Origin: a candidate division WWE3 bacterium
GTDB taxonomy: Bacteria > Patescibacteriota > WWE3 > UBA101185 > UBA10185
Direction of reading: 5' to 3'
Length of the DNA stretch: 64,000 nucleotides
Assembly: GCA_003599255.1 (NCBI GenBank)
Contig: QZJF01000017.1
Span: 35,940-99,939, forward strand
The translations under genes were made by a program, and so were the position numbers. The notes under the pieces are model-generated. The model did not search any database. It had not been told where the DNA came from and was given only the letters and a program-made list of their open reading frames with translations. This document shows, piece after piece, positions 12,780-43,278 of the stretch; position 1 is the first letter of the stretch; each line of letters starts with the position of its first letter.

Positions 12780-13187
12780 TGGCGGAGATGGCGGGAATCG
12801 AACCCACGTGCTGAAAAAACTGCATATAAGTCCTACAAGCTTAGTCAAGTTTATCTTAGGCAGGAATGGTACATGACAAACCTATACCTGCAGCAAGTCC
12901 GACGGGTTACCCTTTTGAGATTACCTCTCCCGGCACTAATACTAGGACTACCTTTACAAGCGGCCTCATCTCGGTTTTATAAAGATCTTAATTCCCTTCC
13001 GAGCAAGCGATGTAAGACCTGCAGTCTAAATAAATTAGGCTGCTACACCGGCGTATGCGGGAACCGCAACATCGGCGTATGCGAAGTCATTATCTTCGGC
13101 ATTTATATTTTTGCTGTATTTTACGCAGTACAGCACTTCGGCCTGCACTTATATTTGGTTATTTCCAGTCAAATCCTGGTCATCTCC
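12780..13187 (-). ncRNA. ssrA: tmRNA (ssrA)
   Basis: The 5' end GGAGAUGACCAGGAUUUGACUGG resembles the canonical tmRNA start. The 3' end is a tRNA-like T-arm GGUUCGAUUCCCGCC plus acceptor and CCA. An internal ORF ends ...AYAGVAA-stop (ALAA-like tag). It lies next to smpB. Confidence 0.65.
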
Positions 13188-13240
13188 ATTTTTAAAAGTA
13201 GAATTTTGTGCCGGAATTATAGCAAATAAAACCCGAAGCT

Positions 13241-13711
13241 TCAAGCCTCTATAATGCGTTTTATCTCTTTGGTATCACGCTCGAGATCCTTCTGAATTTG
13301 CCTGTCTTTTGCGGTCTGTTTCTTTTCGTATTCCTTCTTTCCTTTCACAACAGCAAATTCCAGCTTTATATAATTATTGTTCATCACCAATGCTAAAGGA
13401 ACGGCAGTCCTGCCTTTTTGTGTGAGTTCCTTTCGGATTTCTTCAATTTCGTTGGCGTTAAGCAGCAGGTCTCTGTTCCGCTTTTCATCTCCTAGACCTG
13501 AAGGCCTGCCCTTTTTGGAATAGGTTCCTATATGCATGTTTACAACACAGGGGCGCCCCTCGAAAAGCTGAACATAAGTACCTTCAAAACTGACTTTCTT
13601 TTCTCTGACTGCCTTAACCTCATCCCCCCGCAAAGCTATACCGGCAACGTATTTTTCTATTATAGTATGGTCGTGCAGAGCACCCCTGTTTTTCGCTAGT
13701 AATAAAGACAT
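13241..13711 (-). CDS. smpB: SsrA-binding protein SmpB
   Basis: 156 aa with the typical SmpB length and sequence (IAKNRGALHDHTIIEKYVAGIALRGDEVKAVR...) and a basic C-terminal tail. Confidence 0.85.
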   Translation of the reverse strand: MSLLLAKNRGALHDHTIIEKYVAGIALRGDEVKAVREKKVSFEGTYVQLFEGRPCVVNMHIGTYSKKGRPSGLGDEKRNRDLLLNANEIEEIRKELTQKGRTAVPLALVMNNNYIKLEFAVVKGKKEYEKKQTAKDRQIQKDLERDTKEIKRIIEA

Positions 13712-13764: not shown

Positions 13765-16700
13765 ATGTTCGATGTTATAATTGCAATTGAAATGGTACGC
13801 AGTATCCTTCGAAAAAAAACTTTTAAATCTTTTCTGTTTTTATCCTTGATAAGTCTTATAAGCGCGGGTACATTTCATGTTTTTGCTCAGGGTGTAGGAG
13901 ACAATTATGTTATGGGAGGTCCCCCTCCATGGTGTCCTCCCCCTGAACATCCGGGACTTTCCTCTGTGTGCGGAACGGTGAGAGGTTCTCAACTCGAAGT
14001 GGACGGACGTGGTAATTACATGCCTAATCTCCCGAAGGAAGGTATTACAGTAGCTATTTATGAGGAAAACCCTCTTACACCTACAGGAAAAGTTAGTGAC
14101 GAAACAATAAATGCTGAGGGTGCCCTTTCTAATATTTTTGCCTCTACATCTACAAACAGCGAGGGCCGCTATCATATCGTGATGAGAAAAGTCGGACCTC
14201 CGATGGTCAGAACACACCTCGTTTTTCTGTGTGGAAGTACTGTTGTAGGTCATAAAGAGCTTGATTCCTGGCATGATTACTGGGAAGTGAACGAACAGGT
14301 AAACTGTCCTGGAACTCCTGCGTATACACTTCCCGGGTTTCCCCAAAACTATGTCGATCGATCGGGGTTTTTAGGATGTTTTAATGACCCTGTTGTGGAT
14401 ATTCCCACCGGACTGTCCAAAAACGAACAACCGACGGTAAACAACATTGGGAGGGAGGACAATTATGATCACAGGTATAATAGAAATACTTTCAGTTTTA
14501 CACATCCATTTCCTGATCCACCGGTACCGCCTTTGAGTTTTGAAAGTCCAGGAGGTTTGTGGGAACCGGACTGCTTATTAAGGAAAAACAAATACCTGTG
14601 TAATGCCGGCCCTGCGAATGCCGCGCCACCGGCCCCGACATCTTGTGATTGGAATACACTGAGCACTCAACCCCAGATAGACAATCGGGACACCCCCCTC
14701 TGGTATGCCGGATATACGGTAGATGGTGAGCTTTGCGAGGACCCCTACACCCCTATGCAAGAAGATGATAGGAGAGACTATATTACAAGACCGTTCTTTA
14801 TGTTTATTCCTAAAATCGCAACCACAACAGAGGGATATCGACGATTTGATATACGCGTAAATCTTGAAAACTACATCGCGGACCCTCTGATACCGCTTCA
14901 GTGGATGTGCAAATTTTGGGGATGCTCTGCAGGGGCGCCCAGTGAGCCTCCGCATGTGTTCCTTAGAAAATTCATGCAGGATAATACAACGTTAGATCTT
15001 CTTCCGGACTGTGAAGAACTGAATAAGAGGAATAATGCCTATAAGATTTTCAGAAATCCCGAAAGAAATAAACAATTAAACGGGGGTCCGTTTGGAGGCA
15101 TGGCTTCTCCTTCTGATGATTTGGAAAACGCATACTACGCATCACTTAGAGACCTTAGTGAGCCTATCTGCGTTACACCCACGAGAGATCAAACCAATCC
15201 CGTGCGACTATGCGAAATTCAACCGACATGGTCACCTGCAGGGGTTTGTACCGTAGGAACTCCGGGATGCAATGACCCCGAATTTTCAACAAGATTGAAT
15301 CAGACGCTTAGTACGGCAACTGACCCCAACGTCATAACAGGTATTACTAATGCCCTGTCCTTATGCACCGGTGATTTTGTTCTTGGCAGTGAATACTTCC
15401 CAACTGACGCAATTTTCAGAAATCAAGCTTCATACACCGGAATGACTTCCAGGACAGCCAATGACTCACAAGGTAACACTGCAACCAAAAAACCGGTTGT
15501 ACACGAAGCTTTTGACTCCGAAGATGTAAGTACTCATGAGTCAGGATCCAGGGCAGTACAAGATCCCGGCGGTAGATTCAAAGGCAATTCCGCATTGAGC
15601 CCGGAATCCGTAATAAACCTTCAAATGCAGGTACCGGGAGCGGAATCGATGACTGATCCGTTTACAATACCTTATGCTGATGTCAAAGTTGATTATCTGG
15701 ACGAAGTTAGCTGGGGTATGGCGGATTTCGGAACGAATCAAATACCTAAATGTACCATTGGAAATCCCTTTAGCTATTTGTTGAATACGTTAGCCCAGGA
15801 ATCAGATACAAATTTTCATCCGGATAACATCTATAGGGGTAATTTGGATCATGTAGAACATAGGGCGGTAGGAACCGGAACCTTCTATCCCTCACTAGAT
15901 TCTAAGGATAGAGATATTGCTATGGGAACCAGAACATTTATCGGATATTACTGGGGAGTCGGCTTCAGGGAGTTAGGTGTCCAAAGCGATCTGGTAAATA
16001 TAGCGTTAAATACTTTATGGGGAAGAGACGTTTGGGACAGTATATTGTCTATAGCGGGCGGTGACACCAATATCCATAACTTCACATTTGACATAGGCGC
16101 CGTATTGGCAACCGGGTGGGATGCGCTTGCAACACCGGAGCATATTTTTAAAACATTCGGGGACAGAGACCCCTCACAACAAACCCCATTTGAGAAGCCT
16201 TACTATGAAATAGAGTATCCCGTTAATGAAGCCAATTTCACCACATTCTTTGAATTACCAAGTATAGCTGCCGGAGATCAACTGCTTCCTACTGATTGGG
16301 GTCCTGCACACGTTTGTTATGCCTTTGATCCTCCAAATCCAAATGTACCTGAGGGAGAAGTGTGTGGCACGTACAGAGAAGATCCTGATGGAATATCAAG
16401 AACGTGTCGTGTAGATGAATGTATTGCTTTCTGGCAGGTCGAGAGCCAAAGATGTGAGTGTACAACCAGCGATGGAGTTAACTTTAATTGTGACTGGGAA
16501 GATCCTACATGGGACATTGATTTCGGCGATTGCGATGTGACTGAACGTCTTGAATGCGCATTTGAACAGGAAACAACTCCAAGGAGCGCGGACGGCAGAC
16601 TTGGAGGAGGAGATCCTGAAGCACCTAATGAAATCATCCACGATGAGGACCCGGATGTGGATCCGGGCAACGGTGGAACTCACGACGATTATGTCGGTTG

Positions 16701-18075
16701 CTATAACAGTAGTGGCGGCAGATGTCCTTACGATCCCCCCAGTGTCGAAGCGACTCATAACTGTACTGATAGCAATATTAACTGGAGCAATTGCTTTGAT
16801 TCATTAGGTGTATGGATCTGCGGAACCATAACAAGGGGGTACACCCGTACTACCACAGGGGATACAAAACCACGCTGCGATATGTCCGTTGCAGGACCTT
16901 TAAAGGGCGGTATTGGATGCAATGCCACACTAACAATAGGCGATGTTGCCTTGAGATACAGTCAACAAAATCCATATGACCCGGGCGACACAATCAACCC
17001 TTATTACAAGCCCCAAGTAAACCTGGATGATATGTACATATCCGGGGTAAAGCTTTCCCTTTCTTTCAGAGCGCCTTATCATCCCGCAGTGAAAGGTTCT
17101 AAAAAGGCGACTTTGGATGCAAGAACCACAAACAGTCCTATGGCCACCGAATATGCTTATACTTACGGTGCGGAATTAGATACCGGAGGATGGTCGGACT
17201 ACGCCAATATTGCTCTTATAGCTACTCCTCCGGTTTTCGACGGCGACCCGACGGATGACCTCGCAGAATTGTTCTATCACTGCGATACCATAGGCTCCTT
17301 TACACCTATTGGAGCAAACGATCCTCCTGCCGTGCAAGTTGCAAGTATGAATGTACTTACAACATATGATCCTGAATTAGGATTAGCGGTGACAGACACA
17401 GATGGGGACGGGGTAGCCGATGCAGCATTAATGGGCTGGCAATGTCCAATAGACAACGAACCGGTACCTCCTGTAGCCGAGTTGTCTGATGTCAGCAACA
17501 ATTGTACGGTAGACGCAGGCACTCTTGCTTCTTGCGGGGCAGCGTTTCCCGAAGTACCGGATTTACTCTCAGAAACATTTAGAATTGTAATAAATAACGC
17601 CGCCACCAGATTCGATATACCAGCGGGCGCCCTAATTGCAATTCTTGCCAACGAGGGTGGTTTTGCCTCTGTTTATCATTCTCTGTGGGCAGATGATCTC
17701 ACGGTGCAAAGATGGAGCCTTCCTTACTACGGACGTATGGATGTTGGGGGGCCTGTAACATGTATCGATATGGTATGGTCGGCACAAGGTCCTTATCAAT
17801 TCCTCAAAACTTCATTTGACTCCTTCCTGGCACAATCGGGCGCTCCAAATGAAAGCCTTTGTGCGGCATTAAATGAAATTTCACCGGGCAGATGTCTGTC
17901 TGCCAGCAGATGCAATTTCCTCGATGCATCGTACGCCGCAGCAAGACATATGCAAGCGGGAGGAACTTGCGGCAGCTTTAACTTCGCCACTGCGATGGAC
18001 AGTTATAGCGGGGGATCAATTGCGATTGAGGGAGATATCGGATATCTTCAGAGCATATACAACGCATGTAATTAA
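13765..18075 (+). CDS. giant secreted/surface protein (1436 aa), Cys-rich, with possible C-terminal lysozyme-like domain
   Basis: Signal-peptide-like start (FLFLSLISLISAGTFHVFAQG) and many Cys and Pro/Gly-rich segments. The C-terminus has ILANEGGF...GPYQFLKTSF, resembling the SLT E-S...GLMQ motif arrangement. Its GC is higher than the flanking DNA. Confidence 0.5.
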   Translation: MFDVIIAIEMVRSILRKKTFKSFLFLSLISLISAGTFHVFAQGVGDNYVMGGPPPWCPPPEHPGLSSVCGTVRGSQLEVDGRGNYMPNLPKEGITVAIYEENPLTPTGKVSDETINAEGALSNIFASTSTNSEGRYHIVMRKVGPPMVRTHLVFLCGSTVVGHKELDSWHDYWEVNEQVNCPGTPAYTLPGFPQNYVDRSGFLGCFNDPVVDIPTGLSKNEQPTVNNIGREDNYDHRYNRNTFSFTHPFPDPPVPPLSFESPGGLWEPDCLLRKNKYLCNAGPANAAPPAPTSCDWNTLSTQPQIDNRDTPLWYAGYTVDGELCEDPYTPMQEDDRRDYITRPFFMFIPKIATTTEGYRRFDIRVNLENYIADPLIPLQWMCKFWGCSAGAPSEPPHVFLRKFMQDNTTLDLLPDCEELNKRNNAYKIFRNPERNKQLNGGPFGGMASPSDDLENAYYASLRDLSEPICVTPTRDQTNPVRLCEIQPTWSPAGVCTVGTPGCNDPEFSTRLNQTLSTATDPNVITGITNALSLCTGDFVLGSEYFPTDAIFRNQASYTGMTSRTANDSQGNTATKKPVVHEAFDSEDVSTHESGSRAVQDPGGRFKGNSALSPESVINLQMQVPGAESMTDPFTIPYADVKVDYLDEVSWGMADFGTNQIPKCTIGNPFSYLLNTLAQESDTNFHPDNIYRGNLDHVEHRAVGTGTFYPSLDSKDRDIAMGTRTFIGYYWGVGFRELGVQSDLVNIALNTLWGRDVWDSILSIAGGDTNIHNFTFDIGAVLATGWDALATPEHIFKTFGDRDPSQQTPFEKPYYEIEYPVNEANFTTFFELPSIAAGDQLLPTDWGPAHVCYAFDPPNPNVPEGEVCGTYREDPDGISRTCRVDECIAFWQVESQRCECTTSDGVNFNCDWEDPTWDIDFGDCDVTERLECAFEQETTPRSADGRLGGGDPEAPNEIIHDEDPDVDPGNGGTHDDYVGCYNSSGGRCPYDPPSVEATHNCTDSNINWSNCFDSLGVWICGTITRGYTRTTTGDTKPRCDMSVAGPLKGGIGCNATLTIGDVALRYSQQNPYDPGDTINPYYKPQVNLDDMYISGVKLSLSFRAPYHPAVKGSKKATLDARTTNSPMATEYAYTYGAELDTGGWSDYANIALIATPPVFDGDPTDDLAELFYHCDTIGSFTPIGANDPPAVQVASMNVLTTYDPELGLAVTDTDGDGVADAALMGWQCPIDNEPVPPVAELSDVSNNCTVDAGTLASCGAAFPEVPDLLSETFRIVINNAATRFDIPAGALIAILANEGGFASVYHSLWADDLTVQRWSLPYYGRMDVGGPVTCIDMVWSAQGPYQFLKTSFDSFLAQSGAPNESLCAALNEISPGRCLSASRCNFLDASYAAARHMQAGGTCGSFNFATAMDSYSGGSIAIEGDIGYLQSIYNACN

Positions 18076-18244: not shown

Positions 18245-19597
18245 TTATCTGCCTTTCTTCTCGTTCATTATGGAGCTGTATATAAGGTCTGGTACCTTGA
18301 AAGCGTAGCCGTACCCGAATATGAATATGAAAAGAATTCCGAAGACAGCGTAGAGATAACCGGAAAAGCCTTGGAAATACCCATCCGGAGTCAATCCGTT
18401 CCTAATAATGATTATACCGAACATGTGAATAAGTTGTATTGTGGCGCTTATCGCTACTATCCCAAGACCCCAAGCTATCATCTGCTTAAACCAGTTGATC
18501 ATTTGACTGTCGTTCCCGGGTATCGCCGAGAGAGCAAACTTAAGCGGAGCGGTAACAATCGAGGTTATCATTTTCATATAAATCATTAATGCTTTAAATA
18601 GCGCAAAAAGGTACATGCCAAAAAGTATAACCATTGCTATAGCAACTATTATACCTACGGCCAGCCCACTACCTCCGGAGGCGATTATAAAACCTATTAT
18701 GACCATAGCAATAGCCCCGATACCGCCTTGAAGTGACGCTGTGTAATCCGTTCCTCCGCCCGTCGAGGCAGCAAGTGAGGCAATAATGCTTTGGGCGCTG
18801 TAGTAGAGAGACCATGCCAGACTGGTCATAAACGCACCAATGGGATAGCTAAAAGCTATAAGAACAAGCGCAACCACTATTTTGGGAAGAGCATATTGAA
18901 CGTTAACAACAACCTGTTGATTGATTCTCCTTCTGGTTATGATTGTAATGCCCACATACAGCATAATTAACGCCATTAAAGCGTAAGCGATATTTCGTGT
19001 AATTTTCCAGATATCAAGAATTGCGTTTATAAAAGTGTGCTGATAATCCACCGAATCGGCTGCAAAAGCCTGTTCACCCACAATCGGGATTTTTTTACCG
19101 TAATCCAGGAAAAAAAATGCGGTACTTACAGGAAGAGGCTCATACTTCAGATTATTGTCCAGGTAATAGGCTAAACCAAGTATGCTCCCGGAGACTTTGC
19201 TGCTTGCAAAACGTTGACGATCAAACTGTCCGTTATAAACAAACTGGTTGACTATGTTCCTACAAGTGTCTTCATCAGTAGCACTGCATCCCCAGGCCTG
19301 CATTTCTGATTGAACTTCAGGGAAATATTGGGAAACATAATCCGTGCAATTCATAAACTCGGCCATTTCAGTACCGGTTGTTGTTGTCCAAGTAAAATCG
19401 ACGACAGAGCTTGTCAAATGGTTGACCGCAGTTTCTCTGATATTTCTGTCATAAGAACTCTGAATTTTTCCAAACCATCCCTCAGGGGGATCGCACACAT
19501 TTTGGGCACTAGCACCAGGCGACAATAACATAGCAACAAATAAGAAAGGTAATATATAAAGAGTCTTTAAGGTTAAAGTGTTTTTATCTCCCAGCAT
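18245..19597 (-). CDS. VirB6/TrbL-like polytopic membrane protein
   Basis: Signal peptide, then an ~150-aa Cys-containing extracytoplasmic domain, then 6-7 Gly/Ala-rich TM helices (IGFIIASGGSGLAVGIIVAIAMVILFG), which is the TrbL/VirB6 architecture. Confidence 0.5.
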   Translation of the reverse strand: MLGDKNTLTLKTLYILPFLFVAMLLSPGASAQNVCDPPEGWFGKIQSSYDRNIRETAVNHLTSSVVDFTWTTTTGTEMAEFMNCTDYVSQYFPEVQSEMQAWGCSATDEDTCRNIVNQFVYNGQFDRQRFASSKVSGSILGLAYYLDNNLKYEPLPVSTAFFFLDYGKKIPIVGEQAFAADSVDYQHTFINAILDIWKITRNIAYALMALIMLYVGITIITRRRINQQVVVNVQYALPKIVVALVLIAFSYPIGAFMTSLAWSLYYSAQSIIASLAASTGGGTDYTASLQGGIGAIAMVIIGFIIASGGSGLAVGIIVAIAMVILFGMYLFALFKALMIYMKMITSIVTAPLKFALSAIPGNDSQMINWFKQMIAWGLGIVAISATIQLIHMFGIIIIRNGLTPDGYFQGFSGYLYAVFGILFIFIFGYGYAFKVPDLIYSSIMNEKKGR

Positions 19598-19695: not shown

Positions 19696-22600
19696 ATGGC
19701 AGACAATCCTTTTTATCCCGGATATAAACCGGAGCCCTGGGAACAAAAACCCTCGGAATTCTATCCCGGTTATTTCCCGGGAGCACCTCAACCCAGAAAG
19801 GGATACATTCCCCCTAATATAGGTCCGCTTCCTTATAACTTTGATAGTGTTCTAAAAGAGATCGATATGATTCAGGGGAATGTCGATCTTATGACCTCTG
19901 ATCTTCCTAAATGGGTGTATGAACGCGCCGTCGACGACTTCAAAAGATCCCTGCAGGTTACTATGAAAACCGCAGATATTAAGCCCGAAGAGCTGGATGA
20001 CTTCGATGCTGAATCAATACCGGGTGCATTTAATATAGGGGTGAGTTTGAATCCCATGGATTGGTGGAAAGATCCGGCGGGACAGGCTCAAAAAACGGTT
20101 AAAAACTGGGCAAAGGAAGCCTTTTCATGGAAAGACATAGACACTCGATTCAGAAGGGACCTATGGAGCCAAATATTGGACGAAAAACCAAACTATACCT
20201 TTATAGGTTCAAAAGAAGCGGCAGATGCACTGATGGAAAGGGTTGGTAGACGTCCCGCGGGCGCAGGTACGCCGTCAATCTCCGCACCGGGGGAAAATCC
20301 ACTGGCACTCAGAGGACTTGGTGTCATGGCTTACGATCCGGATACAAGTGGAAGGTCACAGAGGCAATATTTTGACTTCGCTATTGAAAGAGATACCGCA
20401 GGTCACGTTAAAAGGGAAAATAGAATTTTTGTAGACCCCTCCGGTGCTGCTGTGGTGAGAAGAGTACCGAAAAAGTCGGCGACAGATGTTGACGTTTACC
20501 GTCAAAGCGGGAGATATGACGCTTACGGCAAGCTGGCAAGTTCGGTAATCGAGTTTGAAACAAAATCAGGGTATGCAGCAAGTCGTCAAAATGCATACAC
20601 CGATGTACTTAGAGACACAGTACATGCTATTGACGCGGATCTTGGGCAAGCAAAGTACCGTAATGTTATTAATGCCGACGTTGACAGAAAGAGAGCATAC
20701 GATATCTTCAGATCCCAGGCCGACACTCTAGCAGACATGGAAGTATTACAAAAAAGGTTTGGAAAAGCGGTCTCCGATATAAAGGAGGGAACACTTCTTA
20801 ATTCAGACCGCACAGACTGGGACCGCTGGGATTCTATAAATGAGCAGCTTGATAAATCTCTTGCAAATATTGAAACAAGCTACGGAGTGGGGGGAAAGAT
20901 TGACCTTGTGGACAGAAAAGAAGCGGAGAAGATGCGCCATTTTATAGATCCTTATAAGCAGCATCTTGAACAAATGCGTGATCAGGAGCTGTTGCAAATT
21001 GCAAGGGAGAGAAAACGCCTTTTAACGGAAAAGGAACGCTCCCTTCCGGCACAGCTGCGTGCCGGTACCATAACGCAGGATCAGTTTGACACCCAGATCA
21101 AATCAGTCAATGACAGACTTAACGATATTCACCGCACCGCCTCACAAGGAAAAAGGACTCACGCCAGAAACCTTACCAGCTTGGGAAGAGGCCCTTTTAA
21201 CGGCAGAGGGTATCTTTATAACAACTCTTATATAGAGGTTTACGAGCGCAGACTCCTAGAAGAAGTCGTAACAGTTGACTTCTTACGCCCCAGAGCAAGA
21301 GGTAAAAACAAAAGGATTGGAGATGTAATAGCGGAAGTACCCGGAACGCACGCCTCAAGAGCTATTGGGGTTTTGAACAGAATTGAATATGAAAATCAGG
21401 TAATGGCCATAGATGAGGTGTTTGATGCGTTGACCGAAGGAAAATTCCTAGAGAGATATGTCTGGAACAAGGTTAAAACCTATATTGAGCCCCTCACCCC
21501 GGCATATTGGACAAACAAGGCTTTGGATGGTGTGCATTACTTTGGGTTGAAATTAGGTAAGGACGTTGACTTTGAAAAAACATGGCTTGGCAATATTGCC
21601 GGCACCGGTCGTGCGGCAGGGTCTTATGCCGCTCTGTCTAAAAACCAGTTACAACTTTCCAGAGACATAATCGCAACCCAAAGTGAGTTGAAAAAAGCAG
21701 GGCTTTCGGCCGCAAATAGAGCCAAGTTGAATAGCGATTTAGCGACATTACAGACAAACCTGACATCCGTTCGGGGAAGAATAGACGCACTAAGCGAAAA
21801 AGGTCCCGGTAAATTCTGGGGTAACTGGTTCAACATGGAATTTGACGGAGGTCACCCAAATAGACGGGGACAAGTGGATGCATTTGTATCAAACGTACGA
21901 ATCAGTGGGAGATTTTACGGAGGCGCTCATTTCGCAAGTATAGGGGGTCTGGCTCAGTTAAGAGGCATGGTTCACTCAGGGGAATGGACTCCTGAAGCTC
22001 TAGCTTATTTTATAAAAAATGTAGATCACACAGGTTTGGCGAATCCGGCGTTTTTACAGCGTTTAATGGCTCTCAATGGAAATCGGGCTATCGTTCTTCC
22101 GCCCGGAATCAATGCTGAGGAATTTGCGAATCAAGTTATCAACCTCAGGCAATGGGTTCTAAAAAACAGAAAGAATTTCAGTTCCAACGTAAACATGGAT
22201 TCGGATGCCTTCTGGCTCGGTTTTGTGGATATGGTAGCCCACAAGATGAAGGACCCGGATTTCAAATTAATTGGAATCACCAAGAGATATGCAGGATTGT
22301 TTGAAAAACTGTGGAATAAACTGAACGAATTCCAAACAATGCTTTTCACCAAGTTCGGTAAAGTGTTGGCACCTCTTTCTTATATTAAGACGTTTATTGC
22401 CGAAAAAATAGCCGATATGATACCCAAACTGCTATCACTAATAGCTGGCGGTGCCTCCGGAGGAACTCTCGCTATTGTTACAGAAACCTTGGGGCGTGTG
22501 CTTAGACCCATCATACGTTTTGTCGTAAGAAAAACTCTGGATTTCGCACAAAACTTCGTTGGCGGGCTGATACGAGGAGATTTCTTTAAGGCTTTTGCTG

Positions 22601-23382
22601 AACTGGAAAAACAAGTTCAAGCGTTTATGAGAGCCATGTTGATGGTTTCCGCGGTACCTATGCTCATCATTCTTGTACTTACAACAGCTTTTTTTGGATC
22701 ATCGTCTACAACCATTTCCCCGGTAGATCCTACTAGAAGTCCTGGAACAATAGACGCTTTTGAGACATGGACAGCGGGCGGAGGTGGGAGCATGATAGAA
22801 ATCTTGAATCCAACATCAAGGCCATCTACCACCAGCTGTTTCGAATTTGTAGATGCTCCGGGATCCACAATTGGTCAACACCCTATCGGTACTTGGCCTA
22901 CCTACGAAGTCGATGCCCTCAATGCTGCAATTGTCGAGCTTCAAGCAGTTTCAGGTGGTTATCTGGACAGATTGTGTGCAGCCGGGACCATTGAACTTTA
23001 TTGGGCTCCGTGGGATCCCGGTTGGTGCGGACACGTGTTTGGGAGCATAATAGTATTTACGGACACTTGTTCTTATAGCAGAGCGTATTACAATGCGTAT
23101 CTGTTCGCACACGAAACAGGACACGTTTACAATAACAGAGTCGGATGGGATTCTGTTCCGGGATTAATTCAGTTTGCGGAAGTTGACGACCGCGACGGCG
23201 GAACACTGCCTACCTACCCTGGCGACTGTAGTACCAGTAACACTTCCGGAGAAGATTTTGCAGAAACAATAGGAAATTGGGTCAGAATTAATACTTTTGA
23301 TTGCGCGGGAATAGACGCCACACTTTGGGGACAATTCCCGGCACACTTTGAATTTGCAGACGAAGTATTAACCAGACCTTAG
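19696..23382 (+). CDS. large bitopic protein (1228 aa) with Pro-rich cytoplasmic N-terminus, single TM, and extracellular HExxH zinc-metallopeptidase-like domain
   Basis: No signal peptide and an N-terminal PGY/PxP-rich region. A TM helix near residue 960 (AMLMVSAVPMLIILVLTTAFF). The C-terminal domain has AHETGH and a later Glu-rich EDFAE. No Walker A was found. Confidence 0.45.
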   Translation: MADNPFYPGYKPEPWEQKPSEFYPGYFPGAPQPRKGYIPPNIGPLPYNFDSVLKEIDMIQGNVDLMTSDLPKWVYERAVDDFKRSLQVTMKTADIKPEELDDFDAESIPGAFNIGVSLNPMDWWKDPAGQAQKTVKNWAKEAFSWKDIDTRFRRDLWSQILDEKPNYTFIGSKEAADALMERVGRRPAGAGTPSISAPGENPLALRGLGVMAYDPDTSGRSQRQYFDFAIERDTAGHVKRENRIFVDPSGAAVVRRVPKKSATDVDVYRQSGRYDAYGKLASSVIEFETKSGYAASRQNAYTDVLRDTVHAIDADLGQAKYRNVINADVDRKRAYDIFRSQADTLADMEVLQKRFGKAVSDIKEGTLLNSDRTDWDRWDSINEQLDKSLANIETSYGVGGKIDLVDRKEAEKMRHFIDPYKQHLEQMRDQELLQIARERKRLLTEKERSLPAQLRAGTITQDQFDTQIKSVNDRLNDIHRTASQGKRTHARNLTSLGRGPFNGRGYLYNNSYIEVYERRLLEEVVTVDFLRPRARGKNKRIGDVIAEVPGTHASRAIGVLNRIEYENQVMAIDEVFDALTEGKFLERYVWNKVKTYIEPLTPAYWTNKALDGVHYFGLKLGKDVDFEKTWLGNIAGTGRAAGSYAALSKNQLQLSRDIIATQSELKKAGLSAANRAKLNSDLATLQTNLTSVRGRIDALSEKGPGKFWGNWFNMEFDGGHPNRRGQVDAFVSNVRISGRFYGGAHFASIGGLAQLRGMVHSGEWTPEALAYFIKNVDHTGLANPAFLQRLMALNGNRAIVLPPGINAEEFANQVINLRQWVLKNRKNFSSNVNMDSDAFWLGFVDMVAHKMKDPDFKLIGITKRYAGLFEKLWNKLNEFQTMLFTKFGKVLAPLSYIKTFIAEKIADMIPKLLSLIAGGASGGTLAIVTETLGRVLRPIIRFVVRKTLDFAQNFVGGLIRGDFFKAFAELEKQVQAFMRAMLMVSAVPMLIILVLTTAFFGSSSTTISPVDPTRSPGTIDAFETWTAGGGGSMIEILNPTSRPSTTSCFEFVDAPGSTIGQHPIGTWPTYEVDALNAAIVELQAVSGGYLDRLCAAGTIELYWAPWDPGWCGHVFGSIIVFTDTCSYSRAYYNAYLFAHETGHVYNNRVGWDSVPGLIQFAEVDDRDGGTLPTYPGDCSTSNTSGEDFAETIGNWVRINTFDCAGIDATLWGQFPAHFEFADEVLTRP

Positions 23383-23396: not shown

Positions 23397-24038
23397 ATGA
23401 ACATAAGCAGGTTTATAAGTTTCAACGACGCCAAGACAAGAAAAAGAGCCGTGGGTGTGATATTTATGGCAATAGTACTGTTATTGATAATTTTGGTCTC
23501 AGATCCCCAACCTCAACAACCTACAACCGATACAGACGTTCCCGGCGAAAGTCCTGCTGTTGTTCAGGACTACGAGAGCCCAAATGCGTGGAACGGTATA
23601 AAACCTGGTACTCATAAAATCACCGATGTGGCGAATTTCTTTGGAACTGAAATACGCGACGATTATCAAGGGGATGGCAAGACAAAATATTTATATGATT
23701 ACTACGGTAAGGGAGGCCATCCGATGGAAGTCATAACCGATTATGTGGGAACTATTGAATACATGCGTGTTCCGTTAAATGAAACTAAAGTAGGTAGTCT
23801 GGACACGTACAGAGAAAGTCTCAAGCTCGGCGTAGCGGACATGGAATTGTATAAAATTGGTGAGCCTGAAGGCATCAAAGTATATGTTTTTCTTGAGGAG
23901 GGCGTAGCATTCGAAGCAAATCAGTATGTAAGGGAAACATACGCCATCAGATTTTTTGTCCCTACTGATAAAGATACATTTTTAAGATTATACGGCAGAG
24001 ATTTATCCGAAAATATTGAGGACGCTTCAAAATTTTAG
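23397..24038 (+). CDS. N-terminally membrane-anchored hypothetical protein
   Basis: 213 aa, TM helix AVGVIFMAIVLLLIILV, then a Pro/Gln-rich linker and a soluble domain. It starts 15 nt after the 1228-aa gene. Confidence 0.4.
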   Translation: MNISRFISFNDAKTRKRAVGVIFMAIVLLLIILVSDPQPQQPTTDTDVPGESPAVVQDYESPNAWNGIKPGTHKITDVANFFGTEIRDDYQGDGKTKYLYDYYGKGGHPMEVITDYVGTIEYMRVPLNETKVGSLDTYRESLKLGVADMELYKIGEPEGIKVYVFLEEGVAFEANQYVRETYAIRFFVPTDKDTFLRLYGRDLSENIEDASKF

Positions 24039-24502
24039 TTTTGATAGTTGGTAATTTCCGCAGCATCGAGGAAATTAATGAGACCAAGTTCTATTCTGTC
24101 CAAAAGGAAATTAGGTGAAAGTATTGAACCAAAACCCACAAGATTGGCGATTATCATAAAAAGGGCAAAAAATCCTGCAACAACTAAAGCTCCTATCAAT
24201 GCATATGTCCATGTCTTTTGAGCACCCTGAAAACCCTTGGGATCCCCAAGAGCCATCGATAACTTTATAGCACTGTACGCGACTACAAAGATAAATACTA
24301 AACCTACCAAAAGAACCGCAACGTTTAGAAGTCGGGCAATCATGCAGACTATTGCTAAAGGACTTGGAGCTTCTCCGGCCGCTACCTGTGAGTCAAAATT
24401 GGCACAATTGTATGTGAGTGCATACGCCGGAGCTGATCCAAAAGTCAGGACCAGAACAAAAAATAATATTGAAAATAGCCTATTAAAATCCCGGATCTTC
24501 AT
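24035..24502 (-). CDS. VirB2/TrbC-like pilin-family protein (paralog 1)
   Basis: Signal peptide, then a two-helix hairpin with the connecting loop motif LGDPKGFQGAQK that it shares with the neighbouring paralogs. Confidence 0.45.
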   Translation of the reverse strand: MKIRDFNRLFSILFFVLVLTFGSAPAYALTYNCANFDSQVAAGEAPSPLAIVCMIARLLNVAVLLVGLVFIFVVAYSAIKLSMALGDPKGFQGAQKTWTYALIGALVVAGFFALFMIIANLVGFGSILSPNFLLDRIELGLINFLDAAEITNYQN

Positions 24503-24836
24503 TTATTAATCCATTGGCGTTGGCGCCAAAACTTCTAAACACAATAGTCTTAATGGCAACTGCCATTAAAGAAAGCATAATACCAAGAATACTCCAGAAG
24601 GCTGCGTCGCGAGCCTTTTCTATAGCCTTGGGATCGCCCTTGGTCATAAGAAACTGAATAAATGCCCATGCCAAGCCTATTGTTGAAACACTAAAGCCCA
24701 ATCCAATAAAAATATTCACAATGAGAGAAGCTATAGAATAGATGTCCGTAAATTGCGTTGCCCTTTCTCCCGGAGGAGCAGCACTTGTGAGGGCATTTTC
24801 TAGTTCATTAAACATACTTTCCTTTATGTATTCCAA
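24483..24836 (-). CDS. VirB2/TrbC-like pilin-family protein (paralog 2)
   Basis: 117 aa with two hydrophobic helices separated by a TKGDPKAIEKA loop. Confidence 0.5.
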   Translation of the reverse strand: MEYIKESMFNELENALTSAAPPGERATQFTDIYSIASLIVNIFIGLGFSVSTIGLAWAFIQFLMTKGDPKAIEKARDAAFWSILGIMLSLMAVAIKTIVFRSFGANANGLINEDPGF

Positions 24837-24901
24837 AGGGCCTGAGCATGCCCAGGCCCCGTGTTAAATAGTCTAAAACTATTATGCACACAATGGTGAC
24901 G

Positions 24902-25234
24902 TTAGATGGTAACGTTAGTACCAACGTTAACGTTGTTACCACCGGTGAACTGAGTTATAACAGCTCTCAGTACGAATACCAAGAACAGACCAACTCCTCC
25001 GACGACTGCGTAAGTAACCCATTTCTGGGCCTTTTCAACACCCGCCTTATCACCCTGCGACATAATATACTGAATGAAACCGAGGGCAAGCATTATAAGT
25101 ACTAAGGCGAAACCCACACCAAGGACTAAGTTTAATATGAAGGCCAACAACTCCGCCAGCGAGCCTATTCTTCCTCCTAAAGGATCGCTTACAGAAGTAT
25201 CAACCTGTGCGTATACTCTTTGTAATAATTGCAT
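24902..25234 (-). CDS. VirB2/TrbC-like pilin-family protein (paralog 3)
   Basis: 110 aa with two hydrophobic helices separated by an SQGDKAGVEKAQ loop, followed by a Gly/Asn/Val-rich C-terminal tail. Confidence 0.5.
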   Translation of the reverse strand: MQLLQRVYAQVDTSVSDPLGGRIGSLAELLAFILNLVLGVGFALVLIMLALGFIQYIMSQGDKAGVEKAQKWVTYAVVGGVGLFLVFVLRAVITQFTGGNNVNVGTNVTI

Positions 25235-25268
25235 ATGTTTAAGTTTTTATCTATTCACCTCCCTTACA

Positions 25269-27080
25269 TTAAAACCCAACTGATACACCTAGTATCGACC
25301 TAATTATAACCCGTAAAATCGCTACAGACAACAGAATGAAGAATGTACCGATGATTGCGGCTGTCAGCTCTTCCTGACCGTCTTTGACTTTTTGCGGGTT
25401 TCCTTCGCTGGTCATTAGGGTATAGCCTGCTTTCACTATAAAGGCTATGCCTATGAACAACGCGATCGGAAATAGAAGGGTATATAGCCGCGAGATTAAA
25501 TCATGGAATTCGATAATAGGACCTGTGTAGGCAGCGACGATTACTGTAGGATTGCAAGCACCTGTAGGATCTGGAACACAATAGCCGGATTGGCAGACAT
25601 ATCCTGATGTACCCGAGCAACACCCGGTTCCAGTGCACTGCGTTCCTGTTGTGTTGATAATACACTCTCTAGGAAGAGTAGTTGAGCAGGTCCAGTTCGG
25701 GTGCGTGGTGGGACAACAGTCTGCGGGACCTGAACAGGGGTCGCCCAGACTGGCAGTACAAGTGGCAGTCTCACAAATATACTCCGGTCCATAGTATACG
25801 CAGCTATAATCCGCACCAGTGTCACAACACGGGTCCCCTGTAGGCGTACAAAGGTTACCCGGTGCTTCACACGCACCTGTGGGCTGACAAGTAGGTGGCG
25901 CAAGAGTTGAGTCGCACGTATAAACAACCCCGCTCACATCACAACACTCCGCATCGGGATCCGGATTGGAAGAATCACAAACAGGATCGCTGGGCAGACT
26001 GCATAATGAATTGGGATCAAGGCAATTAAAGGTACCGTCATTTTCAGGATCCAAGCACTGGTCGGTTGTAATTTCGCATACACAGGAGCCGTCTACCCCG
26101 GAGCACGCGCCACCAGTAGGCACTCCTAGGCAACGCTTAATGCCGGAAGCATCAAAGTCACACACCCCACTACCACATTGACTATTCAGCCAGCATAACT
26201 CACCGTTGGAAGCTAACCCGCCACACTGATTGATCGGGGGGGCATCCATACATCCAGCTGTAGTGGTGCCTGTCAGCAAATTCTGGGCTGTCTCGTACAT
26301 ACCATCAATACACTGAATGGCACTCGTAGTATCGTTACAGCAGAGAACGCCCAGCGAGTCACTGCAAAGCGTTGGAGGGTCGCTGACGGGACTTGGCGTA
26401 CTGCCTCCGGCACACTGCCCACACTCCCCGGTCGTGGCACTGTTAGTATAAATACACTCTTGTGACGGACTAGCTCCTGTAACCTGTTCGCAACAGGCCA
26501 TGGTACCGGGAGGATCGCTAGCAGGTGGCGGAGTGTTGTCACAGGCCCCGCCAGGTCCGGTACAGCAGGCACCATCCGGATTATAGGCACACCAAAGCTC
26601 GTAACAAGTTGGGGCAAAGCCATTATTTCTGCCCATCATTCTGAATCCTGCCGGACATAAATTATAATTCGGGCCCGCAGGGGGAACATCGCTTGCGTCT
26701 CCGTTCGAACAACTCGGTGCCAAAACTGTATCATCTACATCCCAATAGTTTGCTTCATGTAACCATCCCCACCCCGTCCAAGTAGCATCGGTGTGACACT
26801 CGTTACCAAACAAATTGGCAGGATCCGCACAAAAAGCCTTGTCTATCGCGTTATATCTTAAAAGTGCATCCGCATCAAAAGTGTAAGGACAGCAAGAAAA
26901 ATTTGAGGAAGCAGGACAACCAGCTGCCGCCCCTGTCTGTGAGGAACACTTTATCGCTTCGGGCTGACCTAAAAGTACCGAACACGAAACCGTTCCCGAC
27001 TGTGCATAAGACACATTAGAAAACAAAAGAATGGCAAAAGAAAATAAAAATATTAGCTTGAATGTTCGTACAAATTTCAT
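25269..27080 (-). CDS. extremely Cys-rich secreted protein with C-terminal pilin-like two-helix hairpin (pilin fusion; candidate tip/adhesin subunit)
   Basis: Signal peptide, then ~500 aa with very frequent Cys (many CxxC/CC/CxC), Gly, Thr and Pro. The C-terminal ~80 aa (IGIAFIVKAGYTLMTSEGNPQKVKDGQEELTAAIIGTFFILL) repeats the helix-GxP(K/Q)-helix motif of the adjacent pilin paralogs. Confidence 0.5.
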   Translation of the reverse strand: MKFVRTFKLIFLFSFAILLFSNVSYAQSGTVSCSVLLGQPEAIKCSSQTGAAAGCPASSNFSCCPYTFDADALLRYNAIDKAFCADPANLFGNECHTDATWTGWGWLHEANYWDVDDTVLAPSCSNGDASDVPPAGPNYNLCPAGFRMMGRNNGFAPTCYELWCAYNPDGACCTGPGGACDNTPPPASDPPGTMACCEQVTGASPSQECIYTNSATTGECGQCAGGSTPSPVSDPPTLCSDSLGVLCCNDTTSAIQCIDGMYETAQNLLTGTTTAGCMDAPPINQCGGLASNGELCWLNSQCGSGVCDFDASGIKRCLGVPTGGACSGVDGSCVCEITTDQCLDPENDGTFNCLDPNSLCSLPSDPVCDSSNPDPDAECCDVSGVVYTCDSTLAPPTCQPTGACEAPGNLCTPTGDPCCDTGADYSCVYYGPEYICETATCTASLGDPCSGPADCCPTTHPNWTCSTTLPRECIINTTGTQCTGTGCCSGTSGYVCQSGYCVPDPTGACNPTVIVAAYTGPIIEFHDLISRLYTLLFPIALFIGIAFIVKAGYTLMTSEGNPQKVKDGQEELTAAIIGTFFILLSVAILRVIIRSILGVSVGF

Positions 27081-27168: not shown

Positions 27169-28977
27169 ATGAAAGGTAATATTGTCATACACAACCTGCT
27201 CAAGTCTTTTCTACTGCTGTCGCTTTTTTTTACAGCTTCATCCTTTCTCATTTCTAAAGCGGACGACCCCTGCAAAAACATTCAGGATCTTGATGACCGC
27301 GCTGCTTGTTACGAAAAAGAAATTGAAGAAAGAGAGGAAGAGTATCAATCCACGTCAAAAAAACTGTCTGAGGTCAGATCAAAGAAAAACGACATCTCCA
27401 GCAAAATAAATGAACTTGCGGGGCAATTGAACGTAACCCAGGCAGAGTTGAATGAAGTCGATAGTGATATTAAAAGCTTGCAGGCGGTTCTTGAGGAAAT
27501 TAACAAAAATCTTACCGACAGAAAGGACAAACTGTCAGAAAAGATTGCCCTTAGAAATCACGTTATAAGGAATTATTCAAAAAGAACCTTAATGAACGAC
27601 CTCGAACTTTTCTTTGGGGCAGGTATGGGAGATACAAAACTATCAGGATTTCAGCTATCGTATATGACCTACATGTTTAATAAGTCGGTGAGTGATGAAG
27701 CAATAAAATTGATTAAGGCACTAAATGCGGAAATTGGGAATTTTGAAAAAGATAAGGCGGAAGCTGAAAAATTAAAGGGGGAATTGGAGACAGAAAAGAA
27801 TAATCTTGTGGCACTAAAGAACGATCTTGATAACAGAAAAGCTAATGCACAGGGAGAATACAGTGAACTTGACGAAAAAGAAACCGGGTATGAAAGAGAC
27901 CTGGAGAACATTGAGGAAGAAATTGAAGATCTTTCCGAAAAACAACAGGCAATATTGAAAGCAAAGTATGGGGACGAAAACGGAACCGTAGGTGATTATG
28001 CGTCTCCCACGGCAAAAACACCAGACCCTCCCTTTAAACCAGCTTTTGCAGCATTCAGTTATGGGGCGTACACGCACTACAACGGAATGAGCCAATACGG
28101 TGCAAAAGGACGCGCCGAAGACGGTGACGATTACAAGGAGATTTTGGAATTTTATTACAAAACCGGAGTCGAAGAAAAAGACGGCTTTCCCGATTCAATA
28201 GAGGTACAAGGTCACGGAAAGATGGATTTCCAGAAATATCTATACGGTATAGCTGAAATGCCCGGCGACTGGCCCATGGATGCTCTAAAGGCGCAAGCAA
28301 TAGCTGCAAGAACTTATGCGTATAGATCAAACAAACCTATATGCACGACTCAATCCTGTCAGGTTTTCCTAAAGAGCAAATCGGATAACCCGCCCTCAAG
28401 ATGGAAACAGGCAGTTGATGATACTGAAGATAAAATACTTAAAGATCCCAAAACGTCCCAATACTCATCCACGACCGGAGGTTATATAAACAACGTAGGA
28501 TGGGATGCGGACGGAAAATGGCCGGGAGACGCATACGAAAAGAAAGCCGGATCTCCCTGGTTCTACAAAGCCTGGTACACAAAAAGCTACAACACCTCTG
28601 AAAGCTGCGGACATCCTCATCCATGGCTCACTGAAAAAGAGATGGCGGACATACTTAATGCCTGGGTCGTATGGAGAAAAGGATCTAACAGTGACAAGGA
28701 CAGAATTTCTCCTGTTACCACAAGCTGCTGGGGCGGCGATCCCTATTCTGTAGACAAAATGGCGGATAAGGCAGCAGAATTCGGTGAGAAATACACATCG
28801 GTCAGCAGCGTAGATGTGGACATAAGCAACGGCGGTTATACTTCCAAAGTCTACTTCCAGACAAATAGGGGAAGCGTCGCCATTGACGGAGATACTTTTA
28901 AAACAGTCTACAATCTAAGAGCCCCTGCATATATTTCAATTAAAAGCAGACTCTTTGATCTGGAAAGAAGAAACTAA
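27169..28977 (+). CDS. SpoIID/LytB-domain protein with N-terminal coiled coil
   Basis: Signal/anchor sequence, a ~250-aa heptad-rich charged region, then YLYGIAEMPGDWPMDALKAQAIAARTYA matching the SpoIID amidase-enhancer domain signature. Confidence 0.6.
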   Translation: MKGNIVIHNLLKSFLLLSLFFTASSFLISKADDPCKNIQDLDDRAACYEKEIEEREEEYQSTSKKLSEVRSKKNDISSKINELAGQLNVTQAELNEVDSDIKSLQAVLEEINKNLTDRKDKLSEKIALRNHVIRNYSKRTLMNDLELFFGAGMGDTKLSGFQLSYMTYMFNKSVSDEAIKLIKALNAEIGNFEKDKAEAEKLKGELETEKNNLVALKNDLDNRKANAQGEYSELDEKETGYERDLENIEEEIEDLSEKQQAILKAKYGDENGTVGDYASPTAKTPDPPFKPAFAAFSYGAYTHYNGMSQYGAKGRAEDGDDYKEILEFYYKTGVEEKDGFPDSIEVQGHGKMDFQKYLYGIAEMPGDWPMDALKAQAIAARTYAYRSNKPICTTQSCQVFLKSKSDNPPSRWKQAVDDTEDKILKDPKTSQYSSTTGGYINNVGWDADGKWPGDAYEKKAGSPWFYKAWYTKSYNTSESCGHPHPWLTEKEMADILNAWVVWRKGSNSDKDRISPVTTSCWGGDPYSVDKMADKAAEFGEKYTSVSSVDVDISNGGYTSKVYFQTNRGSVAIDGDTFKTVYNLRAPAYISIKSRLFDLERRN

Positions 28978-29014: not shown

Positions 29015-30463
29015 ATGGCAAAAAGTACAAAGTGGATTAACGTATTGCTCGTAATCATGGGCACATTGATGATGTTCAGCACTCCGTCTGATCCTGACTT
29101 CGGGTGGCACTATAAATATGGGGAACATTTTTTTTCTACAGGACAGCTGCTTAAGGAAAATATTTTTTCGTACACATATACCGATTATATGTGGGTCAAT
29201 TCTTACTGGCTTTTTGAATTGATTTTATTTTTTACGCACAGTTATTTTGGACACATAGTTCCTACGCTAATATTGGGTTTTGCGGCCAGTGTTTTTTGTC
29301 TAGCGATTATCAGAAAACTCGCCAAAAACGAGATTGCAGTATATCTAAGTTTTGTGTTGTTGGCGGGAATACTCAGCTCCTACAACATAACGGTCAGACC
29401 CCACTATTATAGTTCCCTGTTCATGTTATTTTTGCTTTATTCCCTTATCTTTGTCCCAAAACTTAAAATGTATCTTCCATTAATATTTTTATTTTGGGTT
29501 AACCTGCACGCGGAATTTGTGATAGGGCTTTTTGTCCTGGGAACGTACACATTTTTCGAAGCGATCCGGATGTATAGACAAAAGAGTCCGGTAAAGGACC
29601 TGGCAAGTCTGTTCGGGATACCTGCTCTTTGTGTGGCTGTAACACTTATAAACCCGAATGGGATTAATCTGCATATTACATTATTTAAAGAACTTACACT
29701 TCCGGTAAAAAGTTATGTTCAGGAGTGGTCGCATTACGATATTGAAAAATTCGAACGGTACATTACATATATTTTCATTTTGACTGTAGCCTTGGTAGGG
29801 GGATTCTACATGCGAAAAAAAGCCGGTCTATGGTACTTTCTGCTGGCAATATTTTTTGCACTGTTCTCCATAAAAGCAGTGTATATGATCAGAGTTATGT
29901 TTGTTGTGACTTTTTACGGATTTCTTCTTGGAACCGACAAATTTTTTACGGACCTTATGAACTTCCTAAATGACACCAACAAAGCAATCATAAGAAGATT
30001 CATTACTTATACTTATTACGGAGCGTTTCTTGTAGTCCTAGTGAACAGTCTTTGGAAAATAATGCTGGCTACTGACACAAGGTACTGGTCAATTAATCAC
30101 AAATATCCGTACGACGCCATTTCTTTTGTTAAGCAGAATCCAATTAAAGGCCGAATGCTAAACGCATACAACTGGGGGGGCTATCTGATTTGGCAACTAC
30201 CTGAATATCAGACCTTTATTGACGGAAGAATGACTTCATGGAGAGAAACGGATAATTATTTTATGAGCGACTATTACAGAATCCACGAGCCGAAAATTTT
30301 AAATAAATATGTTACTCAATATGGAATAACGTGGGTGATAGATTACCCCACCTCAAAGCTGGCAAAATATTTGAAACAACAGCCTGGGGAATGGGAAGAA
30401 TATTACAAGGACGAAAACAGTGTTATCTATGTAAAAAAAGACAGCAACTCAGAAACTATTTGA
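29015..30463 (+). CDS. polytopic membrane protein, GT-C glycosyltransferase-like
   Basis: 482 aa with ~11 TM helices and a C-terminal soluble domain (YNWGGYLIWQLPEYQTFIDGRMTSW). Confidence 0.45.
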   Translation: MAKSTKWINVLLVIMGTLMMFSTPSDPDFGWHYKYGEHFFSTGQLLKENIFSYTYTDYMWVNSYWLFELILFFTHSYFGHIVPTLILGFAASVFCLAIIRKLAKNEIAVYLSFVLLAGILSSYNITVRPHYYSSLFMLFLLYSLIFVPKLKMYLPLIFLFWVNLHAEFVIGLFVLGTYTFFEAIRMYRQKSPVKDLASLFGIPALCVAVTLINPNGINLHITLFKELTLPVKSYVQEWSHYDIEKFERYITYIFILTVALVGGFYMRKKAGLWYFLLAIFFALFSIKAVYMIRVMFVVTFYGFLLGTDKFFTDLMNFLNDTNKAIIRRFITYTYYGAFLVVLVNSLWKIMLATDTRYWSINHKYPYDAISFVKQNPIKGRMLNAYNWGGYLIWQLPEYQTFIDGRMTSWRETDNYFMSDYYRIHEPKILNKYVTQYGITWVIDYPTSKLAKYLKQQPGEWEEYYKDENSVIYVKKDSNSETI

Positions 30464-41934: not shown

Positions 41935-42097
41935 CTCCTTCTTTTTTATTTCCTACCCGAATTCGGGGTTAGGATCATATAATCTTTTTGGTACGAAATT
42001 ATTAGCAAAAAAACTATCTGATCACAACCCCTGTATTTTTAAAAGAACCTCGGAAGGCAACAGTCACTTTTCAGTTTACTATTGCCTTCCGTAGAAA

Positions 42098-43132: not shown

Positions 43133-43278
43133 TAGAATCTTTCTGTACGCTCCTCTCTTTCTAGTATTTGACCCTTTTTTTAATTGGGTAGAATTTGATC
43201 ACAAAAATATTATGTTCAAAACCCACCGAACTAAATTCCAAAGAGCGGTCAAAAAGGATATACCTTTAGTAACCGCTC

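Follow-up and report, generated by a model that had tools for sequence, protein, structure and literature searches.

The window analysed here, a 64,000-nucleotide stretch of a candidate division WWE3 genome (contig QZJF01000017.1, assembly GCA_003599255.1), contains a complete open reading frame (ORF) with an ATG start at 13765..18075 (+ strand, stop codon included) that encodes a protein of 1436 aa, hereafter the large protein. Our favoured explanation, to which we assign a probability of roughly 0.45, is that this protein leaves the cell to form a stalk or adhesin braced by disulfides, and that it ends in a lysozyme-like head that binds, and possibly cleaves, cell wall alongside the peptidase head of a neighbouring giant protein. 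The large protein provides a concrete target for studying the way in which ultrasmall Patescibacteria fasten onto host cells and live off them.

As the sequence-only reading of this DNA had stated, the ORF is the longest in the window (the runner-up has 1228 aa). Its product is 100% identical to the NCBI hypothetical protein C4561_03645 [candidate division WWE3 bacterium]. Eleven full-length relatives were retrieved at 30–60% identity, none of them annotated and none with a Pfam domain, and an alignment of the large protein with its close relatives showed conservation over the whole length, with ~40 Cys residues invariant or nearly so. The gene is real and conserved: a chance ORF, a pseudogene and a frameshift, the last of which had been named as a possible refutation, were all rejected on the identical NCBI protein and the intact full-length orthologues. 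Since the N-termini of homologues align at about M10 (nt 13792), this codon is probably the true start. A promoter-like −10 element is found at 13776-13781, although such matches are no commoner than in shuffled sequence. The gene had also been described as opening the first GC-rich island of the window, which is correct for bulk composition (GC 0.46 vs. 0.39–0.41) but needs qualification, as the rise is confined to codon positions 1 and 2: GC at the second position (GC2) is 0.47 vs. ~0.32 in the neighbours, while GC at the third position (GC3) is 0.395, the same as in the neighbours. Because GC2 is raised and GC3 is not, the island is attributed to a Gly/Pro/Ala/Cys/Thr-rich protein composition, with no sign of foreign DNA, and horizontal transfer was rejected as its source.

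An exhaustive HMMER search with a profile of the C-terminal 175 aa yielded 102 cluster representatives, in which the C-terminal domain lies at the extreme C-terminus (median of 2 residues to the protein end). Approximately 45 of these representatives measure 1200–1650 aa and are homologues of the large protein along its full extent, while ~40 measure 400–1060 aa and have only the C-terminal domain in common, with N-terminal parts that are unrelated and without Pfam matches; a dedicated Pfam scan of the N-terminal partners in 10 proteins of these other architectures found nothing. The proteins of 400–1060 aa show the motif ...HEG.. with the Glu mostly kept, and one of them (P0062, L009 10001-11944) adjoins secE-nusG-rplK, a locus with no pilin block. 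A word-indexed search with a deep C-terminal alignment gave only 6 short matches. Nearly all species-representative genomes with the family belong to candidate division WWE3, among them the closed RAAC2_WWE3_1 genome (CP006914.1); the exceptions are two metagenome-assembled genomes labelled Saccharibacteria and two labelled ‘Patescibacteria group’. We regard the large protein as a lineage signature of WWE3. A literature search for papers on this family in WWE3 found none.

The sole hydrophobic segment of the large protein spans residues 22–41, with R-K-K before it and V-F-A|Q after it, in agreement with the earlier description of a signal peptide without a transmembrane anchor. The predicted signal peptide (residues 1–41, 13765..13887, +) combines the RKK n-region and a hydrophobic core at residues 22–40 with V-F-A|Q as a plausible signal-peptidase site, where cleavage would occur, and A41 is nearly invariant among the homologues in a 12-sequence full-length alignment. 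Neither a C-terminal membrane segment nor an LPXTG/sortase tail was found in the protein, which ends in ...IYNACN with nothing hydrophobic past residue 41. The Cys-rich, Pro/Gly-rich character that had been noted was likewise borne out: there are 44 Cys (3.1%), an even number, all located in the mature part past residue 56, together with 8.1% Pro and 8.5% Gly, and the isoelectric point (pI) is 4.4. Judged by these sequence features, the large protein appears to be a Sec-exported, disulfide-stabilised, acidic, extracellular protein of ~150 kDa. Candidate phyla radiation bacteria are reported to encode extracellular disulfide-forming enzymes (bioRxiv 10.1101/335083).

Past the signal peptide, a conserved N-terminal region (residues 54–236, 13924..14472, +) stands out in the alignment by its CPP..PGL..CG and YEENP.SPTGK motifs and is homologous in distant full-length relatives, with no Pfam match. 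The remainder was modelled with AlphaFold from 45 sequences (residues 237–1436; mean predicted local distance difference test (pLDDT) 74, predicted template modelling score (pTM) 0.55), and the model comprises alpha/beta Cys-rich domains, an acidic linker, a beta-rich domain, a second linker and a helical head. The central mixed alpha/beta Cys-rich region (residues 237–935, 14473..16569, +), with a long beta-hairpin region at ~880–935, has pLDDT mostly of 70–95 and no match in Foldseek against the Protein Data Bank (PDB), in Pfam or among PDB sequences. It is followed by the acidic low-confidence linker, for which the model gives pLDDT < 50 at residues 941–983 (16585..16713, +) and the alignment shows poor conservation and varying length. 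Within this linker, Tandem Repeats Finder (TRF) detected a 12-nt tandem duplication (GATGAGGACCCG x2.1, 16642-16666, +) coding for D-E-D-P-D-V-D-P, which is a likely site of length variation. The beta-rich domain (residues 1023–1141, 16831..17187, +), delimited by the secondary structure of the model, contains the motif RC..S.AGP...CN, with R1037, C1038, A1043–P1045, C1052 and N1053 invariant.

Foldseek of the ~1200-residue model (residues 237–1436) against the PDB gave no match with E < 2.6, and the domains that precede the helical head in this model may therefore be either structurally novel or modelled too poorly. No enzyme signature was found in this part. Pfam scans of the large protein (whole, and in segments at E ≤ 1) and an NCBIfam scan gave no match, and sequence and profile searches against the PDB (the single protein, 12- and 44-sequence C-terminal profiles and a 45-sequence full-length profile) gave nothing meaningful, the best matches being a GST homologue (E 0.5) and UFM1 (E 2). 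Internal domain repeats, for which a repeat-finder had been suggested, were absent at both DNA and protein level, as judged by TRF (apart from the 12-nt duplication), self-BLAST and hhalign among six segments.

The C-terminal domain (residues 1262–1436, 17548..18072, +) is a putative divergent lysozyme-like module, as indicated by the models, by hhalign to the lytic transglycosylase SLT domain and by weak fold matches of lysozyme type. It is all-helical in an AlphaFold2 model built from 12 sequences (pLDDT 79, pTM 0.81), and within the 45-sequence model of 1200 residues its pLDDT is mostly 85–95. Both strings that led the sequence-only reading to compare the last ~170 aa with lysozyme/SLT domains were confirmed, ANEGGF at residues 1295–1300 and GPYQFLKTSF at 1342–1351. 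When a 44-sequence profile of the domain was compared by hhalign with Escherichia coli Slt70/MltC/MltD/MltE/MltF, ‘IVINNAATRFDIPAGALIAILANEGGFA’ aligned with ‘DLFKRYTSGKEIPQSYAMAIARQESAWN’, a region in which a turn joins helix 1 to helix 2 and the catalytic Glu closes helix 2, so that E1297 falls on the SLT Glu. The score of this match was 27.4 (P 0.0013); none of 30 column-shuffled controls exceeded 15.1, and the reversed profile reached 11.6. An SLT profile of 125 sequences, enlarged by 120 database homologues, reproduced the result but brought no gain, because the added homologues were mostly enterobacterial EmtA and Slt. E1297, which closes helix 2 and is the candidate general acid, is encoded at 17653..17655 (+) and is aligned with the catalytic Glu of Slt70/MltE/MltC/MltD; the residue that follows is Gly, vs. 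Ser in the SLT ‘ES’ motif.

The weak structural matches of the domain point in the same direction. Around 25 of the 50 best weak Foldseek matches in the PDB belong to the lysozyme superfamily (GH23 chitinase, g-type lysozymes, MltC/E/F, Slt35, SltB3, a phage transglycosidase and a FlgJ-type hydrolase), and in BFVD at least 15 named matches are GEWL-like, SLT, GH19, glucosaminidase, muramidase or tail-lysin proteins. The best global structural neighbour is the goose-type lysozyme-like GH23 chitinase of Ralstonia sp. A-471 (PDB 3w6b-3w6f), with a template modelling (TM) score of 0.42–0.51 over ~190 columns, which is nevertheless below the usual same-fold threshold (E ~1.6–6, root-mean-square deviation (rmsd) 7–8 Å, 12–14% identity). 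With the family-1 lytic transglycosylases and their SLT domain (GH23; PF01464; Slt70, MltC/D/E/F) the domain shares the all-helical architecture and the helix-turn-helix ending in the aligned Glu, and by eye also, further on, a helix beginning with G-x-x-Q and a Y-x-G-G stretch. It differs from them in an insertion of ~25–30 residues between the Glu and G-x-x-Q, in four conserved Cys and an R-C-N-F-L-D motif that SLT enzymes lack, and in that the Glu is not family-wide. On balance the C-terminal domain probably belongs to the lysozyme superfamily as a highly diverged branch, an assignment that we hold at somewhat better than even odds, and it does not qualify for the SLT family proper.

The conservation pattern within the family adds to this picture. 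E1297 is kept in 11 of the 12 proteins of the window’s clade and in 33 of 39 proteins of other architectures, as well as in 17 of 44 full-length proteins, and from this distribution the Glu looks ancestral and retained in the window’s clade. The most conserved site of the domain family is the R-C-N-F-L-D motif (residues 1382–1387, 17908..17925, +), invariant in the 44-sequence alignment, with C1383 and N1384 present in 45/45 sequences, D1387 in 44/45 and F1385 in 43/45. The A-Q-G-P-Y-Q motif, which had been likened to GLMQ (residues 1340–1345, 17782..17799, +), is kept to a lesser extent (A1340 38/45, G1342 38/45, P1343 41/45), with Asp in place of Q1345 in 26/45; Y1414 is kept in 14/45. Further family-conserved positions are R1376/R1382, G1417 and Cys 1333, 1402 and 1435. 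Read together, these patterns suggest that the C-terminal domain may be a wall- or ligand-binding lysozyme-like module that could be catalytic in the Glu-bearing clades.

The large gene has a constant place in an envelope block of ten genes. The order in the window is tmRNA, smpB, the large gene, genes for a 450-aa and a 1228-aa protein, two genes for small membrane proteins, three T4SS_pilin genes and SpoIID, and the order from smpB to SpoIID was the same in 14/14 related loci, as far as the contigs reach and with the large protein down to 23–26% identity; in two genomes the block was rearranged as a unit by inversion. The 1228-aa protein (19696..23382, +) begins with a Pro-rich/coiled-coil part, followed by a membrane segment near residue 974, and the outside head in which it ends contains HETGH (nt 23110-23124). 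In most orthologues of this neighbour (~1100–1300 aa) the head has an invariant H-E-x-x-H, with only weak metalloprotease matches, whereas in two it is a CHAP domain (Pfam E 1.9e-5 and 3.9e-4, narrowly missing the cut-off) and one orthologue, by eye, ends in an M23-like H-x-H. As its C-terminal heads swap among HExxH, CHAP and M23-like types, this neighbour seems, as far as sequence comparison can tell, to behave as a polymorphic wall-hydrolase carrier with interchangeable heads. Its orthologues include L007 15931-19089, L016 3765-7361 and L020 1129-4926.

The three VirB2-like pilin genes (117, 110 and 603 aa; 24483..27080, −; Pfam PF18895 with E 4.9e-7, which is above the cut-off, 3.9e-5 and 5.5e-5) form an array located 6–9 kb downstream of the large gene, in the arrangement that is conserved in all 14 loci. 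The 603-aa pilin gene (25269-27080, −) encodes a signal peptide, a Cys-rich outside domain of ~500 aa and a C-terminal T4SS_pilin domain (residues 527–591, the match with E 4.9e-7). This protein has 58 Cys (9.6%), and the length range of its orthologues (246–620 aa) reflects an outside domain of variable size. The suggestion that the large protein is a component of a secretion system is upheld as far as the linkage to this VirB2-like array is concerned. VirB4 is the signature ATPase of type IV secretion systems (T4SS), and since none was confirmed in the window, the link rests on the pilin array and the block and not on a complete T4SS. Patescibacteria T4SS clusters have been described as resembling monoderm MPF-FATA systems with VirB2 arrays (PMC12102498), and the role of T4SS-like genes in this phylum has been called ‘completely unknown’ (PMC11665869).

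We infer a mechanism from these observations as follows. Because of their size, export, disulfides and absence of an enzyme signature, the first ~1200 residues would form a rigid stalk or adhesin made of novel Cys-rich domains, while the last 175 residues would be a divergent member of the lysozyme/lytic-transglycosylase group, with E1297 as general-acid Glu at the canonical end of helix 2. This head would bind the glycan strands of peptidoglycan and cleave them where the Glu is kept, and in the sub-clade with Ile/Val at this position its part would be limited to binding. The peptidase head of the 1228-aa neighbour (HExxH; CHAP in orthologues) would be its partner, and together the two heads would open the wall locally, either the cell’s own wall for the passage of a pilus or secretion structure, or the host wall at the contact site. 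A role of lytic transglycosylases in breaching host envelopes has been proposed (PMC11665869).

Two types of known proteins serve as points of comparison. In the VirB1-type hydrolases PrgK of pCF10 and TraG of pIP501, a membrane anchor, an SLT domain and a CHAP domain are combined (PMC12102498). The large protein resembles them as a large envelope protein with a putative SLT-like head encoded beside pilus/secretion genes, with a CHAP/metallopeptidase head in the same block, and a shared role in opening peptidoglycan for a trans-envelope structure is proposed here. It departs from them in its cleavable-looking signal peptide in place of an anchor and in ~1200 extra residues of no known fold, and in this block each activity would reside on a giant protein of its own; Pfam detected neither a CHAP nor an M23 domain in the large protein, and hence not the combination of SLT with CHAP or M23 in one membrane-anchored chain that marks the VirB1-like PrgK, TraG, TrsG and CD419. 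VirB1 homologues are rare in Patescibacteria T4SS clusters, where other glycosidases may take the VirB1 role (PMC12102498). PrgB-type adhesins are alike in length (~1300–1400 aa), export, location beside mating-pair-formation/pilus genes and presumed contact function, while the large protein is without their LPXTG/sortase signal and no similarity in sequence or fold to them was found. PrgB is not Cys-rich, unlike the large protein. No PrgB-type adhesin has been found in Patescibacteria T4SS clusters (PMC12102498).

Several observations weigh against our favoured explanation. No Pfam SLT model matched the large protein or its segments, and among 44 family members scanned against Pfam there was a single SLT_4 match, at E 0.094. 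The hhalign similarity to SLT spans only 28 columns with a probability of 18–20%, and the global alignment of the domain with SLT fails (P 0.11). The proposed equivalents of the GLMQ and AYNxG motifs, AQGPYQ and YSGGS, were unpaired in local, extended and global hhalign, so that the earlier pairing of GPYQ with GLMQ was recovered in no alignment, and AQGPYQ lies 45 residues after E1297 vs. ~15–20 from Glu to GLMQ in SLT enzymes. The Foldseek check that had been proposed thus gave a mixed outcome, with C-terminal matches that are enriched in lysozymes but include nothing significant (best E 1.5 in the PDB and 0.5 in BFVD, TM at most ~0.5) and internal segments that match nothing. The invariant R-C-N-F-L-D and A-Q-G-P sites are not SLT motifs, and to our knowledge the pattern of C1383, N1384, D1387 and P1343 is not that of any lysozyme family. 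Of 44 full-length orthologues, 21 replace E1297 with Ile (17) or Val (4), the one of CP006914.1 being an example with Ile, and because they too are encoded in the block, its conserved function cannot require this residue. As to the secretion system, the only virB4 candidate, a 647-aa ORF at 44736-46679 (−) with a Walker A motif at residue 396, is ~20 genes away and gave generic P-loop matches, the best being AAA at E 0.004; its VirB4 identity is unsupported beyond the P-loop, with no PDB match.

Part of this evidence would be expected if the C-terminal domain had a new helical fold unrelated to lysozymes, in which case the likeness of ANEGGF and GPYQ and the weak fold matches would reflect chance or helical-bundle similarity, and the function would lie at Cys-Asn-x-x-Asp and Ala-Gln-Gly-Pro. 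The non-significance of every fold match with its large rmsd, the short and low-probability profile alignment and the long Glu-to-G-x-x-Q distance all fit this idea, which we nonetheless consider improbable: one superfamily dominates the weak matches in two independent libraries, which is unlikely for a random helical bundle, and the hhalign score is almost twice that of the best of the 30 shuffled controls and falls exactly on the catalytic Glu. The loss of the Glu in about half of the full-length orthologues, with R-C-N-F-L-D and A-Q-G-P invariant, is the pattern of a binding site, and it raises the alternative of a non-enzymatic surface adhesin or stalk whose C-terminal domain only binds or anchors, be it to the cell’s own wall, a polytopic membrane protein or a pilus, and cuts nothing. 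Something must hold the large protein at the surface given that it has no membrane anchor or sortase signal, no enzyme family matches any part of it, and no adhesin has been recognised so far for Patescibacteria T4SS clusters (PMC12102498). Set against this are the retention of the Glu in the window’s clade and in the other architectures, which suggests selection where it is present, and the motif-I similarity, which is specific to the catalytic helix; we therefore regard a purely adhesive role as rather unlikely, if still deserving of attention.

A structural role in an S-layer or in the envelope generally, unconnected with the pilins, is very improbable for the large protein; its neighbourhood would then merely reflect low genome rearrangement in WWE3. 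Its size, acidity (pI 4.4), export and abundance in the lineage would suit such a role, and the housekeeping gene smpB is an equally conserved neighbour. S-layer proteins are typically Cys-poor, however, whereas the large protein has 44 Cys; the block survives inversion as a unit in two genomes; and the C-terminal domain also occurs in other architectures outside the block, which implies a mobile functional module. At the other extreme, the stalk-and-head explanation could be extended to the whole ten-gene block as a WWE3-specific host-contact and envelope-breaching apparatus built on VirB2-like pili, with the wall-opening activities that one VirB1-like protein unites in Gram-positive T4SSs split over two giants, the neighbour bringing exchangeable peptidase heads (HExxH, CHAP or M23-like) and the large protein contributing a disulfide-braced stalk of new fold, a new lysozyme branch and the missing adhesin. 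This extension is speculative, and we judge it unlikely as a whole.

Under the favoured explanation of a stalk or adhesin with a wall-binding head, the family can be tested as a possible source of the contact and wall-binding or wall-cutting functions that are missing in WWE3, because it is locked into a pilin-containing block beside a giant protein with swappable wall-peptidase heads. The analysis also brings to light a lineage-wide, previously uncharacterised family of exported ~150-kDa proteins, with ~100 cluster representatives of its C-terminal domain, and flags ~1200 residues of confidently predicted folds without a match. With its invariant R-C-N-F-L-D, the C-terminal domain family merits a Pfam entry whatever its activity.

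The remaining genes of the block and its surroundings are as follows. The left neighbour smpB (13241..13711, −; Pfam SmpB E 2.7e-39) adjoins the large gene in 13/14 loci, the contig of the 14th ending inside the large gene, and serves as a position marker rather than a functional partner. Next to smpB lies the transfer-messenger RNA (tmRNA) gene (12780-13187, −), with the tag peptide AEDNDFAYADVAVPAYAGVAA. A Cys-rich ORF of 118 aa (12873-13229, +) runs antisense over it and is almost certainly spurious, because the tmRNA overlaps it on the opposite strand. To the right of the large gene, the invariant partner gene at 18245..19597 (−) encodes the 450-aa protein, with a signal peptide, an outside domain of ~170 aa with 4 invariant Cys and ~7 membrane helices; a VirB6 identity was considered and found no Pfam or PDB support, the resemblance being in topology only. 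The two small membrane-protein genes (213 aa, +, and 155 aa, −) occupy 23397..24502, and the SpoIID-domain protein (27169..28977, +; Pfam SpoIID E 4.3e-18) forms the right end of the block, its position being conserved.

Directly after SpoIID, positions 29015-36561 of the window encode five large polytopic membrane proteins (482–572 aa, 5–11 predicted helices) around a GT87 glycosyltransferase, which is the only protein of the run to match Pfam, and the run may be a surface-glycan or wall-polymer assembly cluster. A second GC-rich island (40624-49209, −) is unlike the first in that GC3 itself is raised (0.48–0.535 vs. ~0.40–0.43). It holds a Rho-like protein, an M23 peptidase, the 647-aa P-loop protein (a possible but unproven VirB4) and a 652-aa protein with four transmembrane segments. 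For the first of these, the ‘ATPase’ at 40624-41934, assignment as a secretion ATPase was rejected in favour of a Rho-like protein (NCBIfam E 3e-31).

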